DNA of 63,990 bases, filler included, from Ferroacidibacillus organovorans (lineage in GTDB: Bacteria; Bacillota; Bacilli; Alicyclobacillales; SLC66), in the NCBI RefSeq assembly GCF_001642725.1. It is 5 parts of 5 records of this genome, joined end to end, with 100 filler letters (N's around TTAATTAATTAA, not from the genome) between each part and the next. Parts side by side here need not be neighbours in the genome. Positions count along the whole stretch, not along the records: positions 1 to 15,366 come from NZ_LSUQ01000062.1; 4 more parts are not named here. One strand, written 5' to 3'. Of the stretch, positions 1 to 9,000 are shown piece after piece. Within the stretch, counting starts at the first letter, position 1; each line of letters starts with the position of its first letter. The position numbers are program-made.

Positions 1-3000
1 AAAATCCCTTCGTCCATTCTTGACGCAACACTGGGAACGCATCCGTAGTGAACTCCTTCGGGGAACCTATCAACCATCGCCCGTACGTCGAGTCGAAATC
101 CCGAAACCAGACGGTGGCGTGCGTTTGTTAGGTATTCCCACTGTGCTAGATCGCCTGATCCAGCAGGCTATTCAGCAAGTTCTCACACCTATCTTTGACC
201 CGGAATTCTCACCGTACAGTTATGGCTTTCGTCCGGGGTACAGCGCCCATGACGCGGTCAAACAAGCGCAGGGCTACATTGCGCAGGGATACCGCTGGGT
301 AGTCGACATGGACTTGGCACAGTTCTTTGACCGCGTGAACCACGACATGCTCATGGCGCGGGTCGCACGGAAGGTCGCGGATAAACACCTGCTCAAACTG
401 ATCCGAAAATATTTACAAGCAGGCGTCATGATTGGCGGAGTGTGTGTAGTATCAGAGGAAGGAACCCCGCAAGGAGGTCCCCTGAGTCCATTACTTTCGA
501 ACATCATGCTGGATGACTTGGACAAGGAGCTAATGCGCCGGGGACATCGATTTGCAAGGTACGCGGACGACAGTAACATTTATGTGCGGAGCCGTCGCGC
601 GGGAGAACGGGTGATGGAAAGTGTTACTGAATTTGTTGAAAAGCGACTAAAGCTCAAGGTGAACAGGGAGAAGAGCGCGGTAGATCGCCCGTGGAAAAGA
701 AAGTTCCTTGGCTTCTCATTCACGTGGCATCGCCAGCCTAAAATCCGGGTATCTCCGAAATCTCTCAAACGTTTCAAAGACAGAGTTCGAGATCTGACGA
801 AACGTAGTCGGGGTCAATCCATGGAGGCACGCGCTGCAAAGCTCAATGCGTATCTACGTGGGTGGAGTGGATATTACCGTCTGGCCGAAACGAGGAGTAT
901 ATTCGCGAATTTGGATGAATGGGTACGCCGGAGACTACGGATGTGCCTGTTGAAGCAATGGAAGAAGCCAAAAACGAAGCGAAGGAAACTCGTCGGACTT
1001 GGCATACCCGAGGATTGGGCCAGAATGATTAGTGGTTCCCGTAAGGGATACTGGCGGTTGGCCTTGACTCCTCAGATGAACAAAGTCCTTGGTCTTGCCT
1101 ACTGGCATGACCAAGGACTTGTGAGCTTGGTTGAACGATATGATGCACTTCGTTCCACAACATGAACCGCCGTATACCGAACGGTACGTACGGTGGTGTG
1201 GGAGGTCGGGAGCTAGCCGCTCCCTCCTACCCGATTTCTTCCCGCATAACAACACTACTCGAATGCATATCGGACACCAGGTTAAATAGGGTAGTAGAAT
1301 ACGAATGCAGAGTTCATTTTGAACCTGTCTGTTTCAAAAAGTGAACTTATACAGATGGTACAGATCGGAAATGAACTGATCATAGAAAATATACATTTTC
1401 ATGACATTTTCGTTGAAGTTATGAAGAATTCGGTCGTTTGGGTGAAAAATCATCATGTTTTCTTGCGGTTTATTCATAGAATAGATGAAAGTGTTACAGG
1501 TATGTGATATAGTTAGTTCGTCTGAAGAGAGGGAAGATGTTTATTTCCCAAGAAAGTGAGGGGAGTCATGGATGAAACAGACAAGAAAACGGCGTCTGTT
1601 CATAGGGGTTGCAATGGCGGGTGCTTTCATGCTCGCAGGATGTGGTGTCGTCAATGGCAATGCTTCGTCGATTCTTTCATTCAATTCAAGTGCCAAGACA
1701 GTAACGTTGAATCTGGCTGGCGGATTGAATACGAATAACGACTCGATGAACCTCGACGGGTACTCCCAGGGGCAAATGACGGTCACTGTACCTGTAGGGT
1801 ACAAAGTAAAGGTCGAATTTGTGAATGACGGTGGTATCCCGATGGATCTCGCTGTATACACGATGAACGACCAACTCGCGTTCCCGGGTGCAGGAGACAG
1901 CGTTACGGCAATTCAAGGCAACGCATCAGCAGGTGTCATTCCTGGTCAGTCGACGAGTTTTACATTTACGGCGAGTCAGCCAGGGAATTATCAACTCGCC
2001 AACCTGTTGGATCGAGTAACAGGACACGGCCAGTTTGATTTCGGAATGTGGGCGCACTTTAATGTATCCTCTACAGCGACCCAACCGAGCATTACGCTTT
2101 CGTAAAAGAAGCTTGAGAAAGCGCTTTCGAATATAGGTTTAGCGATGGGAGGATTAGGGCGTGGCAAACGAGGAACCGCAAGAAAAGAAAAAGGTCGAAG
2201 TGGACTGGAGTCGCCGCCAATTTTTGATTGGCACGGGAGCACTCACGGTGGTTGGACTCGGCGCGATGTTTTTGAATGAACCTGTCGCGGCAGCCGTTCG
2301 CTCCGTTTTTGGCCAGCAACCGGAGTCAGGGCCGATCACGGTATTACAGGGCGATTATTTTTACATTCCAAACTACATGACCTGGCGCGTAGGCGATCAG
2401 ATTAGTATGACCATTCATAACACGAGTACGACACACTTCCATGAAATGCAGATTGGACGCGGCTTCAATACGATGCCCACCGCGCTGCAGACCATTCGCA
2501 CGCAGTTTGCGGAAGACTTTTGGAAGGGTGTGCCCGTCACGATTACGGCGGCGCAAGGAATTGATAACTTTGTAACGAATGAGGCGAAAATCTCCTCGGA
2601 CGTACACCCCACGCCTTGGCTATTAACCCAGCCTGGCAATGGTGGCTTTAGCCCAACGATGAAACCGGGTGGACAGATCACACTTAGCTTCACAGTTCCC
2701 AATAAACCTGGTATCTGGCACTACGCGTGTTTTGTCCAAGGGTACATGCACTGGCTTGCAGGAATGCGCGGTACGATTAATATTTTACCGGCCTGATTTT
2801 GTGAATTAGCTTTAATTCTAGCAATCACGGAGTGGAAGGAGGAACACCTGAATGTCAGACGTTGTCCTGTTTGGTATTTTGTGGGTTATTCTCACGATTT
2901 TGGGCGAAATCGGCGTCAGCTTGTGGGGTCATAACATGTACTACTATATGGCTTCCACACAGGCTATCGAGGGCAATCATGCTGCTATCTTTCTAATGAT

Positions 3001-6000: not shown

Positions 6001-9000
6001 GTCGCTCGTAGGACTTCTTTCGGGAAAGATGAGAGCGAGCCGCGTCGGCATTGATGACAGTAACCGCTTCAGCATTGGCGCCAGCTTCAAGTTTTGGATT
6101 TTCTTGCAACTGATGTGGGTCGTACTCTACGTGGTTTACTACTTTATTTAAGGAGGGATTGGCGTGGGCGGATTTTTTCCTTCTTTTCCTTTCTATGTCC
6201 CTGACAGTCCGGGAACACCCCTTTGGTGGGATATCTCGTTCTGGCTGTTCCAGTTAGTCGTCATGTCGGCTCTTTTGCTCACGCTTCGCCGTTGGGCGAT
6301 TCGTGCAGATCTCGATCGCGAAGAGGCTTACCAAGAGAGTCTTCGCACCCCTGAGAAATCCTGAGTAGTGAAAATGCCCTCTTGCGTCTCGCAGGAGGGC
6401 TCTTTTCCTCGTAACTGTCTTCGGATCCTCTTGCATTGACGCAATAAACGAAGAAAGGAGCGCTGCCGAATGGACATGCACGATTTAAACAATACGCAAA
6501 TTTTATCCGTCTATTATTCAAGTTTGATGATTGTGGTATGGATCCTGTTTTTTACGATCTTTACCGTTTCATTCATGACATTCATTTTTAAGTGGGTTGG
6601 GCAACAAGCAGATGAAATGGATCTAAAGCAAAACCCCACAGTTTTAAAAGGGGGCAGACGTGTTCCGCTGCGGCTGATTCCTGGCGGTGGAAATAAGGTA
6701 TTCCAAGCGCGTCACCGTCTGCAAGTGGGTTGGTACATTCTCTGGTATGGACTCGGCGCGATCTGGTTGCTCGACGGTCTGCTTCAAGCGCAGCCCGATA
6801 TGGCGCTCCCGCTTTTTGTGAAACTCGTTTTTCAACCACTCGCGAATGCGCAACCGAGTTGGCTCAAGGCTGTCATGGATCTGGGGATTTATCTCTGGAA
6901 TCAAAATACCGTCACAAGCAATATTGGTGCCGTTCTCATTCAGGTTGGAATTGGAGTTGCTATGCTTACGGGACGCAGTCGTCTCTGGGGCAAGATCGCT
7001 GTTTACGTGTCTCTTCTCTGGTCACTTTCGATCTGGGTCTTCGGTGAAGGAATGGGGAACCTCTTTTCGCACCCCAGTTATTTTAATGGTACACCAGGCG
7101 CTGCACTCATCTATTCCGTGCTATCCTTGTTTCTTATTCTTCCGAAGAAATACTGGTTGGAGGGTCACATTGCACGCTGGTCGTTGCGGGGTTTAAGTAT
7201 CATGTGGATCGTGCTTGCGCTTGCTGAGCTTCTCCCGAAAAATGGCTACTATAGTCCGAACGGACTTTTTTCAATCATCGCCACGCTCTCGAATATGCCG
7301 CAACCGCAATTTATTTCTTCATCCCTGGAATCCATTGCGTCTGCTATTTTTAGGGCGCCAATCGTTTGGAATGTCGGTTTCTCGATGATTATGTTAATGC
7401 TTGGCGTCATGGGATTGTTCGTGCGATCACGCAAAGTGTTTTTAACGCTCACGATGGCATGGTTGGCATTCTCTTGGTGGGCTGGCCAAGACTTTGGCTT
7501 CTTTGGCGGCATGGGTACTGATTTGAATATGTCCCCGCTGCTTGCGCTGATGTATGTTGCGTGTTGGTGGTATGGAGAGGCCAGCGGTGATGGACATTTG
7601 CTCGTACGCTCTGTGAATAATAATGAATCTCTGCGCGCGAACCGCGGATGACATTGCGAAGCGCAACGTTACCCAGTATGATCAGGTAGAGTTGTGTGGA
7701 CAAGTGAGCAGAGTGAGGGTGACAAAGTTGGCAGCGTATTGGGCATTATTCAATGAAATGCTGATGATTATCAGTGCAGTGATTGCTTTGTTTGGATGGC
7801 GTCAAATTCGTAGGAAGAATCGCGAGGTTCATCGCAAATTGATGATGACATCCTCTCTTTTCGGGGCAGGCTTTTTTATCAGTTACGCAGTGGCGACATT
7901 GGCGATTGGGGATACATCCTTCGGCGGTCCACAATCACTTTCTGTCCCGTACCAGATTTTTCTGCAGATTCACGTCATGCTGGCGACGATTGCTGCTGTC
8001 ATGGGTGTGGTTACGATTGTTCTCGCTTTGCGCAGTCGTTTTTCCACGCATCGACGCATTGGTCCGTGGACGGTTATTTTCTGGTTGGTGTCTGCCGCCA
8101 CCGGTTTAGTTGTTTATCTGATGCTGTTTGTGATCTTTCCTCCTGGGCCTACTATTAAAAACTTACTGCATGTGCTTGTCTCGTCAAAATCGTAGGGGGC
8201 TTTCTTGTGAAATGGGCAACATTTGCGTTTGGTATCGTTAGTGTGCTGCTTACAGTCATGACGGGTCTCATTGTTCAGGGTTCGTTTCTCGTTCATGTCG
8301 CATCGTCGGGAACGACACATGAGAAGTTGGCGGTGATCGTTTATGGTGCGGCGGCCATGGCGCTACTCGGTTCGATTATGGCGCTTTTTCGGCCGCGCTT
8401 TGCCGCGTGGTGTTTTGTGATCGCATCGGTTGTCGGTGTATTTGGCGCGTTTGACCTGTGGATGTTTCCGGGTTCGGTGCTGTTTGTCTCGATGATCATG
8501 GCGTTTGTGCAACGCACGGAGCAGACGACGGCGGGTGCAGACAAAAAGGCTTAGTGAGTGCCGAGTGACGTGTACGGGAGCGAACCTTCGCTTCCGTTTT
8601 TTTGTGTGTGAATCTTAATCTACGGCCTAGTTGAACGTCCATATTTATGCGAAGGAGTCATGATATGATCATAAGGTAGTGGTGGTACTACTGCGAGAGG
8701 TGTGATTTTAGTGTTATCGATGAATGATATCCAGGCGCCGCGCTTGGCTGCGACGGTCATTCTGGTCGATGCGTGGAACGCACAGCCGTTTCGTGTCCTT
8801 TTGATCAAACGTCCGAGTCAGCTTCGCGTTTTACCAGGATTTTGGGTGTTTCCTGGGGGGCGAGTCGAGATGGAAGATGGGCTTGGATCGGTCGATGAAA
8901 TGGATGCACTCTTGCATGCGGCCATTCGCGAAACAAGGGAAGAAGTGGGGATTTTACTCGAGAAACAAGCGCTCCTATGGTTCGGGAGGCGAGTTACTCC

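Follow-up and report, generated by a model that had tools for sequence, protein, structure and literature searches.

The operon described here raises the question of how electrons reach a CuA-type oxidase in a genome with no recognisable cytochrome c. It lies at positions 1572-8195 (+) of the window (the whole stretch of DNA analysed, 63,990 nucleotides with filler) from Ferroacidibacillus organovorans (RefSeq GCF_001642725.1), and encodes, in order, a SoxE-fold lipoprotein, a cupredoxin with a Tat signal, then oxidase subunits II, I and III, and after these a subunit-IV-like protein of 66 aa, a membrane protein of 393 aa and CtaM. The SoxE, cupredoxin, COX2, COX1 and COX3 reading frames lie on the + strand where the first-pass annotation had described them. 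The features are as follows:

1572..2105 (+): SoxE-fold lipoprotein, a 'pseudo-sulfocyanin' without type-1 copper ligands (PF06525 SoxE, E 5.6e-15; lipobox LAGC at residues 21-24)
2161..2796 (+): AcoP-family cupredoxin (PDB 7z3b AcoP, E 5.4e-20; twin-arginine motif SRRQFLIG; N-terminal hydrophobic anchor)
2852..3655 (+): oxidase subunit II; CuA site complete, cytochrome c domain absent (PF00116, TIGR02866)
3682..5568 (+): A-family oxidase subunit I (PF00115 COX1, E 2e-109; TIGR02891, 454 bits)
5582..6151 (+): short subunit III-like protein (PF00510 COX3, E 2.3e-5)
6164..6364 (+): hydrophobic protein of 66 aa, probable analogue of subunit IV (position conserved; no Pfam or NCBIfam family)
6376..6400 (+): terminator-like hairpin, end of the first transcription unit (stem of 11 pairs, including 8 GC, followed by a T run)
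6470..7651 (+): 393-aa polytopic membrane protein of no family (no Pfam or NCBIfam match)
7623..8195 (+): CtaM (DUF420), a heme-A oxidase assembly factor in Bacillota (PF04238, E 6.4e-35; role according to passages of PMC9145763)

Analysis of subunit II revealed the CuA ligands H191, C232, E234, C236, H240 and M243, which were invariant in 33/33 orthologues except for E234 (31/33). Subunit I carried the motifs GHPEVY, HHMF and HFHY together with an extra N-terminal stretch of approximately 100 aa, and its closest solved chains were subunit I of actinobacterial aa3 and Thermus caa3 oxidases. From its sequence, the operon encodes an A-family, proton-pumping oxidase of the aa3 type, with a full CuA centre retained in subunit II. 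Paralogues of subunit III follow COX1 in the operons on contigs C23 and C39, and each of the three CuA operons in this genome has the 66-aa protein immediately behind subunit III. Terminator-like sites in total were not above shuffles, so it is position and strength that argue for the hairpin at 6376..6400. The 393-aa protein has paralogues behind the oxidase genes on C39 and, close to the rusticyanin genes, at C28:26351-27190; as a lead only, its Atlas model is similar (TM 0.79) to the membrane portion of SCO fusion proteins from actinobacteria, and it possibly has a role in copper or oxidase assembly.

The genome contains six heme-copper oxidase loci (7 COX1 pieces, with one gene divided between C27 and C39), in agreement with the three quinol and three cupredoxin-linked operons counted in the first-pass annotation. 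Three are Qox-like, with QoxB as best NCBIfam match at 996-1011 bits, just under the 1015.5-bit cut-off; the other three carry the CuA motif, and an AcoP-type copper protein gene heads each of these. One of the three CuA operons is broken by insertion sequences, which counts against the model proposed below. Heme A synthase was present (3 matches over the cut-off) and no bd oxidase was found in the genome.

The absence of cytochrome c was examined by family and motif searches. PF00034 gave no match in the genome at E<=1, and PF13442 gave three matches at E 0.1-0.5 and none over the cut-off. The CxxCH motif occurred in 167/29928 six-frame ORFs of at least 50 aa; the family scan covered the 22 that were the longest frame over the motif, the other 145 being left out as shadows of longer ORFs, and placed 14 in non-cytochrome Pfam families, 8 in none and 0 in a cytochrome family. 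The single PF01578 gene of the genome lies between hemA and hemC, as in a hemA-X-hemC arrangement, and is HemX-like. These results uphold the earlier claim that both c-type cytochromes and their maturation system are absent. A cytochrome that exists but was missed, either in the unassembled 3.2% of this draft (98 contigs, 96.8% complete) or in an unrecognised family such as might be hidden among the eight family-less CxxCH ORFs, is highly improbable: a maturation system would also be required, yet only the HemX-like gene is present, and each of the eight ORFs holds one CxxCH only. In our own reading, 4/8 of them overlap near-equal ORFs in another frame and 0/8 has a signal peptide. A second species of the genus (100% complete), in which no cytochrome c domain was found, and closed genomes of the order (G002, G003, G008 and G036) give the same picture. 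Because the CuA oxidases stand without a c-type cytochrome or maturation system, copper proteins are the only recognisable CuA donors.

Two copper-protein folds are encoded upstream of subunit II. The first, the lipoprotein, had been read as a sulfocyanin that passes Fe(II) electrons to the oxidase, as proposed for Ferroplasma. The Pfam SoxE match and the position of the gene inside the oxidase operon in 31/33 cases favour this reading, but the protein scored 53 bits on the sulfocyanin equivalog TIGR03094, far under the cut-off of 168. Among 31 orthologues, the column of the Cys ligand held Asn in 20, Asp in 8 and Ser in 3, with Cys in 0/31; the first His ligand was kept in 1/31 and Met in 29/31, and no His, Cys, Asp or Glu column was invariant besides the lipobox Cys. 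The AF2 model retained a cupredoxin fold (pLDDT 78.6). When the best 150 relatives from a library of 1.84 billion proteins were compared, 122 kept both the Cys and the first His ligand, yet the top-scoring clade, which includes this lipoprotein, kept neither. These substitutions indicate that the copper site has been lost. Since both ligands are gone, the lipoprotein cannot act as a blue copper electron carrier, and the sulfocyanin reading retains very little probability; an accessory subunit without redox function is the most likely role. The broader proposal of cupredoxin-fed oxidases without cytochrome c thus survives for the remaining copper proteins as donors and fails for the ligand-less 'sulfocyanin'.

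The second protein, the cupredoxin at 2161..2796, matched no Pfam family. Its copper ligands are H94, C190, H197 and M202 (C-x6-H-x4-M), and the ligand loop aligns with that of AcoP, although identity was low and HMMER aligned two stretches only. All four ligands were invariant in 33/33 AcoP-like orthologues from related operons, and an N-terminal anchor with an RR or KR motif was read in AcoP-like proteins. The protein is a homologue of AcoP, which is encoded in the Acidithiobacillus ferrooxidans rus operon and partners cytochrome oxidase, and it is the most likely electron donor to the CuA oxidase. Passages of PMC10804444 and PMC4059628 report that AcoP binds cytochrome oxidase, has a potential of +566 mV and transfers electrons. 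Two points count against the model: at a potential near this value, direct reduction by Fe(II) would be uphill at low pH, unless the homologue is tuned higher, and A. ferrooxidans AcoP is also discussed as an oxidase stabiliser as well as a carrier, with cytochrome c as the proven donor (passages of PMC10804444).

The AcoP-like protein may instead be off the electron path, as a structural or chaperone-like partner guarding CuA and other metal centres at acid pH, with CuA fed directly by rusticyanin homologues or Fe(II). Parts of PMC10804444 and PMC4059628 treat AcoP as an accessory that preserves oxidase activity at low pH, its strict linkage to coxB (33/33) would suit a subunit as well as a carrier, and the genome does encode two membrane-anchored rusticyanin homologues on C28 (PDB 2cak, E 6.9e-23, all four ligands kept). 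We consider this unlikely: a purely structural role does not demand that four redox-copper ligands be invariant in every orthologue, and rusticyanin homologues are missing from 10/19 operon-carrying genomes.

We also examined the spread of these genes across the 64 genomes of the order. Cytochrome c domains were present in 30/64 and absent from 34/64, including all 16 genomes of one genus, which have neither CuA motif nor AcoP-like gene; the loss is therefore not tied to iron oxidation. The maturation protein of the cytochrome-c-positive genomes is a fusion of 670-800 aa with a weak match to PF05140 (E 0.001-1), and it passes the cut-off in 12/64 genomes only when pieces are summed, so that the earlier count of ResB in 0 of 64 was a sensitivity artefact. 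At least three PF01578 copies were found in 28/30 positive genomes and exactly one in 30/34 negative genomes. An AcoP-like gene was present in 11 of the 12 cytochrome-c-less genomes with a CuA motif and in 0/22 of those without, where the CuA DNA pattern missed 6/30 cytochrome-c-positive genomes and a pattern-negative genome is therefore not proof of absence. All 33/33 AcoP-like genes of the order had a CuA motif 0.75-1.1 kb downstream, and in named or MAG genomes COX2 lay directly downstream at 54/55 loci, the remaining locus ending with its contig. Counted against the model, 8 of the 19 genomes with the operon were cytochrome-c-positive; no cytochrome c domain was found within 80 kb on the same contig of their 12 AcoP-like loci. 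Also counted against it, the cytochrome-c-less genomes G035 and G036 encode a further CuA subunit II, of a different type (CDQFCG), that has no AcoP-like gene beside it, and rusticyanin homologues, found in 15/64 genomes (9 with an AcoP-like gene), are not tied to the operon. Four rusticyanin-bearing genomes (G057, G058, G043 and G044) had neither cytochrome c nor CuA motif.

The presence of the operon in cytochrome-c genomes, and in species not known as iron oxidisers, would also suit ordinary organotrophic respiration, in which an orphan cytochrome b module oxidises menaquinol and reduces the AcoP-like protein in a quinol oxidase supercomplex like archaeal SoxM. Two cytochrome b6-like genes were identified (C5:84729-86425 and C10:874-2467), and a membrane protein of 341-361 aa that belongs to no known family accompanies each of them. 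This route appears quite doubtful. Both modules are unlinked to the CuA operons and, as the first-pass annotation had noted, lack the Rieske protein that such a complex needs: none of the four Rieske matches in the genome adjoins cytochrome b, and two of them (ORFs of about 335 aa) are in our reading cytosolic oxygenases. No bc complex or other recognisable quinol:carrier reductase was found in the genome, and quinol oxidation is covered by the three dedicated Qox-type oxidases. The named operon carriers belong to Alicyclobacillus, Sulfoacidibacillus and Sulfobacillus and are for the most part iron or sulfur oxidisers.

Comparison with known systems pointed most closely to A. ferrooxidans, whose rus operon has the order cyc2-cyc1-acoP-coxB-coxA-coxC-coxD-rus. 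Shared features are the AcoP-family gene directly upstream of coxB-coxA-coxC, the ligand spacing H...C-x6-H-x4-M with an N-terminal membrane anchor, a rusticyanin homologue in the genome and an acidophilic habit. In contrast to A. ferrooxidans, F. organovorans has no Cyc2, Cyc1 or any c-type cytochrome and no outer membrane; its rusticyanin genes are unlinked, its cupredoxin carries a twin-arginine signal, and two genes of the operon, that for the copper-less SoxE-fold lipoprotein and ctaM, are additional. Bacillus subtilis caa3 and aa3-600 are likewise A-family, heme A, CtaM-dependent enzymes, and Qox-type operons also occur here; in caa3, however, a cytochrome c domain is fused to subunit II and a bc complex supplies the electrons, both lacking in this system. 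In Ferroplasma, a copper protein in tight association with a heme-copper oxidase is likewise proposed to connect Fe(II) to O2 without cytochrome c, but the carrier is a true sulfocyanin (His, Cys, His, Met) accompanied by a Rieske/cytochrome b complex (passages of PMC13741234 and PMC10654088). With a ligand-less SoxE-fold protein, an AcoP-like carrier candidate and no respiratory Rieske protein, the present system departs from the Ferroplasma-like layout first suggested, and the A. ferrooxidans acoP-coxBAC module with rusticyanin is the closer analogue.

AcoP-like genes in Sulfobacillus cytochrome oxidase clusters are already known (passages of PMC4059628; Sulth_0449-0453 in a table of PMC6315122). 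These clusters have the same order of cupredoxin followed by subunits II, I and III (loci L107, L110, L129, L138, L120, L123, L124 and L137), in some copies with 'SoxE' in front. The published accounts name this upstream gene sulfocyanin and do not remark on missing copper ligands, which are also missing in the SoxE-fold protein of S. thermotolerans (L110). Unlike F. organovorans, most Sulfobacillus genomes have c-type cytochromes: PF13442 matched in 3/4 genomes searched and not in S. benefaciens AMDSBA1, in agreement with parts of PMC4378227. In Fe-reduced spectra of Alicyclobacillus ferrooxydans and Sulfobacillus thermosulfidooxidans, both Gram-positive acidophiles, the a-type cytochromes dominate (passages of PMC5143472). 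This had been taken as support and the dominance holds, but the A. ferrooxydans TC-34 genome has 5 PF13442 matches, so its spectra do not come from a cytochrome-c-free organism.

Taken together, positions 1572-8195 are best explained as a Gram-positive version of the acidophile acoP-coxBAC module, and on balance we lean towards a path that retains the copper half of the iron pathway known from Acidithiobacillus (rusticyanin, AcoP and aa3 oxidase) without its two cytochromes c. The CuA oxidases would be supplied with electrons from the outer side of the membrane. The copper centre of the AcoP-like protein, whose potential is probably high, would be reduced by Fe(II), directly or via the rusticyanin homologues, and would pass single electrons to CuA, from which they would move on to heme a and then to the heme a3-CuB site for the reduction of O2. 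This would correspond to the copper half of the A. ferrooxidans downhill pathway without Cyc2 and Cyc1; Cyc2 would be dispensable because there is no outer membrane to cross.

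The oxidase gene cluster occupies positions 1572-8195 of the plus strand on contig C62 (window 1-15366), one of 98 contigs of a genome that is 96.8% complete. Our analysis upheld the open reading frames and oxidase families that a first-pass annotation had described here as an operon. The genes are listed below.

Genes of the CuA oxidase operon (window positions, strand, description)
1572-2105, plus strand: SoxE-fold lipoprotein (Pfam SoxE family)
2161-2796, plus strand: AcoP-like cupredoxin of 211 aa, twin-arginine motif, no Pfam family
2852-3655, plus strand: oxidase subunit II
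3682-5568, plus strand: oxidase subunit I
5582-6151, plus strand: short oxidase subunit III
6164-6364, plus strand: hydrophobic protein of 66 aa
6470-7651, plus strand: membrane protein of 393 aa, no family
7623-8195, plus strand: DUF420 protein, CtaM

CtaM is needed by the heme-A oxidases of Bacillota, according to passages of PMC9145763. Strong terminator-like hairpins were identified at 6376-6400, after the 66-aa gene, and at 8574-8597, after the gene cluster; the total count of such sites was not above that of shuffled sequence. Paralogues of the 393-aa protein are encoded at C39:18906-19715, after another CuA oxidase operon, and at C28:26351-27190, near rusticyanin genes. Its Atlas model resembled the membrane part of actinobacterial SCO-fused (CuA assembly) proteins (TM 0.79), and we treat the protein as a lead that may point towards copper delivery. 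The contig begins inside a group II intron, with a reverse transcriptase/maturase frame at 2-1165 (RVT_1, GIIM) and the catalytic 3' domain at 1165-1235 (Rfam RF00029, 45.7 bits), and the intron ends approximately 330 bp ahead of the operon. At the other end, a ribonucleotide reductase frame with a TSCPD domain (12180-15365) runs off the contig and carries one CxxCH near its C-terminus. Contigs from two metagenome runs of other studies, labelled mine drainage metagenome and metagenome, shared 0.79-0.83 of the sampled words of this stretch.

Subunit I matched PF00115 (E 2e-109) and contains the motifs GHPEVY, HHMF and HFHY, which we take to be the heme and CuB ligand motifs. It belongs to the A-family, and its closest solved chains were those of actinobacterial aa3 and Thermus caa3 oxidases. 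Residues 1-105 (window 3682-3990) lengthen the N-terminus by about 100 aa and include two extra hydrophobic segments; this extension had no match among solved oxidase chains. Subunit II carries a complete CuA motif, H...C-x-E-x-C-x3-H-x2-M. Ligands H191, C232, C236, H240 and M243 were invariant in all 33 related operons and E234 was kept in 31 of them; no cytochrome c domain was detected in the subunit. A full CuA set without such a domain indicates an enzyme designed for single-electron uptake from a carrier outside the cytoplasm rather than from quinol. The quinol oxidase models gave the same answer, since the operon oxidase scored 318 bits on QoxB (cut-off 1015) and 39 on QOXA (cut-off 241), with CuA present. 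The best match of three other oxidases in the genome was QoxB, at 996-1011 bits, just under the cut-off of 1015.5, and the CuA motif was not found in these Qox-like enzymes. Heme A synthase is encoded in the genome; no bd oxidase was found there. In the third CuA operon the subunit I gene is broken into two pieces on separate contigs (C27:1037-1804 and C39:20826-22022), with transposase genes abutting both; a SoxE-fold gene is missing from this operon, and Gln replaces Glu in its CuA motif.

In searches for c-type cytochromes, PF00034 gave no match at E ≤ 1 in the genome and PF13442 gave three at E 0.1-0.5, while control genomes rang with both models. CxxCH occurred in 167 of 29928 six-frame ORFs. 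In 22 of these the ORF was the longest frame over the motif; the remaining 145 were treated as shadow frames and fall within the reach of the six-frame Pfam searches. Fourteen of the 22 matched iron-sulfur, Fur, SIR2, glutamate synthase, NarH, L32, AlaRS, ribonucleotide reductase or similar families, eight matched no family, and none matched a cytochrome family. A search for the maturation apparatus, System I or II, by its CcsA/ResC or CcmC/CcmF protein revealed no PF01578 gene beyond a single copy, which lies between hemA and hemC and scored 84 bits on the CcsB model (cut-off 187.6). We take this placement to be the HemX arrangement of Bacillus. The PF00034, PF13442, CxxCH and PF01578 searches bear out the original description of a genome devoid of cytochrome c, and with neither domain nor maturation system in the genome, cytochrome c is not supported as the donor of the operon oxidase. 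In the literature covered, which excludes older subscription papers, we found no published remark on c-type cytochromes being missing from Alicyclobacillus or related bacteria, and the draft-genome notes PMC4888994 and PMC11123200 make no mention of cytochromes or copper proteins.

The loss reaches well beyond this genome. Cytochrome c domains were present in 30 of the 64 genomes of the order and absent from 34; among the latter are closed genomes, every one of the 16 members of the largest genus, and the sister species (100% complete). PF01578 was found in at least three copies in 28 of the 30 positive genomes; of the negative genomes, 30 had one copy, three had none and one, 62% complete, had four. 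The loss of cytochrome c is a lineage trait and not a mark of iron oxidation. The first-pass annotation had also used ResB (PF05140) as a maturation marker and counted it in 0 of 64 genomes. We rejected this marker, since it matches the fused maturation proteins of the order only faintly, which explains the zero count despite the 30 genomes with cytochrome c. Genomes bearing cytochrome c encode a fused protein of 670-800 aa whose N-terminal domain is CcsA-like and in which a ResB-like part is faintly recognisable, as at G039:C153:6042-7733 (locus L017) and G038:C153 (locus L018) in two genomes of the order, with a second PF01578 gene about 4 kb off. Among ten named or MAG genomes with the operon, four had no PF13442 match: Sulfoacidibacillus thermotolerans Y002, Alicyclobacillus sp. 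SP_1, Alicyclobacillus sp. ALC3 and Sulfobacillus benefaciens AMDSBA1. A lack of annotated c-type cytochromes in AMDSBA1 is in print, and was taken as probably incomplete in the relevant passages (PMC4378227).

Two genes at the head of the operon encode cupredoxin-fold proteins. The first, the lipoprotein, had been described as a sulfocyanin. It passed PF06525 (55.6 bits, cut-off 21) and failed the NCBIfam equivalog TIGR03094 (53.2 bits, cut-off 168.4), and its AF2 model has a cupredoxin fold (pLDDT 78.6). A first alignment was built from 13 homologues and the wider picture came from a profile search. More distant, true sulfocyanin-like members of the family in the same alignments keep His...Cys...His...Met; the lipoprotein and its close relatives have Met, Ala, Tyr or Phe at the first His, Asn, Asp or Ser at the Cys, and a longer loop. 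Among 31 orthologues, none retains the Cys (N, D or S in all 31), one retains the first His and 29 retain the Met; of the columns holding His, Cys, Asp or Glu, only that of the lipobox Cys was invariant. The profile search of 1.84 billion representatives returned 796 relatives, 11 of them at E ≤ 1e-30. Within the best 150 of the 796, ligand-less relatives head the list; 122 had both His and Cys, 24 neither, three His only and one Cys only. In Sulfobacillus thermotolerans, the SoxE-fold copy ahead of one operon also has no ligands. On these counts the lipoprotein has no copper site, and we regard it as a putative non-redox accessory subunit, whose function can be named only with low confidence. 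The correction matters because the 'sulfocyanin' ahead of these oxidase genes, an annotation used in iron-oxidation models and in transcriptome tables of Sulfobacillus and relatives, has no copper site.

The second cupredoxin has the predicted ligands of one. PDB 7z3b, AcoP of Acidithiobacillus ferrooxidans, matched the 2161-2796 protein (E 5.4e-20) in two aligned stretches (residues 60-129 and 162-211), and the ligand loops of the two proteins align. The copper ligands of AcoP are given in passages of PMC4059628 as H85 and C159-x6-H166-x4-M171; their counterparts H94, C190, H197 and M202 were invariant in 33 of 33 orthologues. Column counts also revealed a conserved hydrophobic stretch at residues 21-37, read as an N-terminal anchor; roughly two thirds of the 33 rows also carry an RR or KR motif. 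As judged from its sequence, the protein belongs to the AcoP family. According to passages of PMC10804444, AcoP is a membrane-anchored, acid-stable copper protein of high potential (+566 mV) that binds the oxidase and can hand it electrons from cytochrome c4, and its role as carrier versus stabiliser is unsettled.

The AcoP-like gene is tightly linked to the CuA oxidase across the order, with 33 copies in 19 of the 64 genomes. A CuA motif lay 0.75-1.1 kb downstream of every copy, a SoxE-fold gene lay upstream of 31, and the AcoP-like gene sat beside coxB within an oxidase cluster for 33 of the order's 33 copies and at 54 of 55 further loci. Of the 34 genomes without cytochrome c, 22 had neither CuA motif nor AcoP-like gene and 11 had both; one incomplete genome, which kept maturation genes, had the CuA motif only. 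Among these genomes the CuA motif thus tracks the AcoP-like gene. The CuA pattern found no site in 6 of the 30 cytochrome-c-positive genomes and so can miss CuA variants. Two genomes without cytochrome c each encode an additional CuA subunit II of a different kind that is not flanked by an AcoP-like gene (motif CDQFCG...HSKM; G036:C1:1279806 and G035:C286:3468). In the eight cytochrome-c-positive genomes with the operon, none of 12 loci had a cytochrome c domain match within 80 kb on the same contig.

We also examined where electrons might enter. The genome encodes nothing recognisable that would connect the quinol pool with a soluble carrier. Four Rieske matches were rejected as parts of a bc complex, as none adjoins cytochrome b; they appear to be oxygenase-type or small proteins, and two read as cytosolic oxygenases. 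A Fer4-NrfD ORF (C6:91838-93409) was likewise rejected as alternative complex III, since it adjoins a molybdopterin oxidoreductase and would need c-type subunits. Two orphan modules (C5:84729-86425 and C10:874-2467) each pair a cytochrome b6-like protein (204 and 213 aa) with a 341-361 aa membrane protein that has a large outside domain and no family; no Rieske or cytochrome c partner was found for either, and passages of PMC4378227 describe a similar lone di-heme cytochrome b in Sulfobacillus. Outside the window, two membrane-anchored rusticyanin homologues are encoded at C28:20557-21219 and C28:22858-23775. The first matched PDB 2cak (E 6.9e-23), and all four of its ligands, the His and those of the C-x4-H-x4-M loop, align; the second is 60% identical to it, keeps the C-x4-H-x4-M loop and matched Pfam SoxE and Copper-bind weakly. 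In both, a Gly/Met-rich linker comes after the membrane anchor at the N-terminus, and putative peroxiredoxin-like, ArsR-like and cation-efflux genes follow them. Rusticyanin homologues were present in 15 of the 64 genomes, nine of which have the operon, and are not tied to it; four genomes (G057, G058, G043 and G044) have them without cytochrome c domain, CuA motif or AcoP-like gene.

With rusticyanin homologues, an AcoP-like protein and an aa3 oxidase, the genome has the copper-protein half of the pathway of A. ferrooxidans, but neither of that pathway's two cytochromes. The earlier copper-protein interpretation, modelled on sulfocyanin and Ferroplasma, would better be centred on AcoP and Acidithiobacillus. 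The layout fits iron-reduced spectra of Gram-positive acidophiles, which passages of PMC5143472 report as dominated by a-type cytochromes; Alicyclobacillus ferrooxydans, one of the two species in those spectra, encodes cytochrome c. We tentatively propose, as a reading that is less likely than not, that an all-copper electron wire replaces cytochrome c in this bacterial respiratory chain. Fe(II) outside the membrane would reduce rusticyanin or the AcoP-like protein directly, the latter would be indispensable as the sole physiological donor to CuA, and the SoxE-fold lipoprotein would be a new non-redox subunit docking carriers or iron at the oxidase. Acidophilic Bacillota that lost cytochrome c would have kept CuA oxidases only where this module is present.

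Parts of this picture are already published, and AcoP homologues inside cox clusters of two Sulfobacillus species are reported in passages of PMC4059628. Electron uptake from Fe(II) by Gram-positive acidophiles is described as still open in a passage of PMC6803676. Roughly half of the order's genomes have neither cytochrome c nor its maturation system, and the present genome is a stripped-down case, with no cytochrome c, bc complex or bd oxidase, in which the quinol oxidases are separate from the three CuA oxidases that each have an AcoP-type copper protein. Whether AcoP serves as carrier or stabiliser, unsettled in Acidithiobacillus, is therefore testable here without a confounding cytochrome c4.
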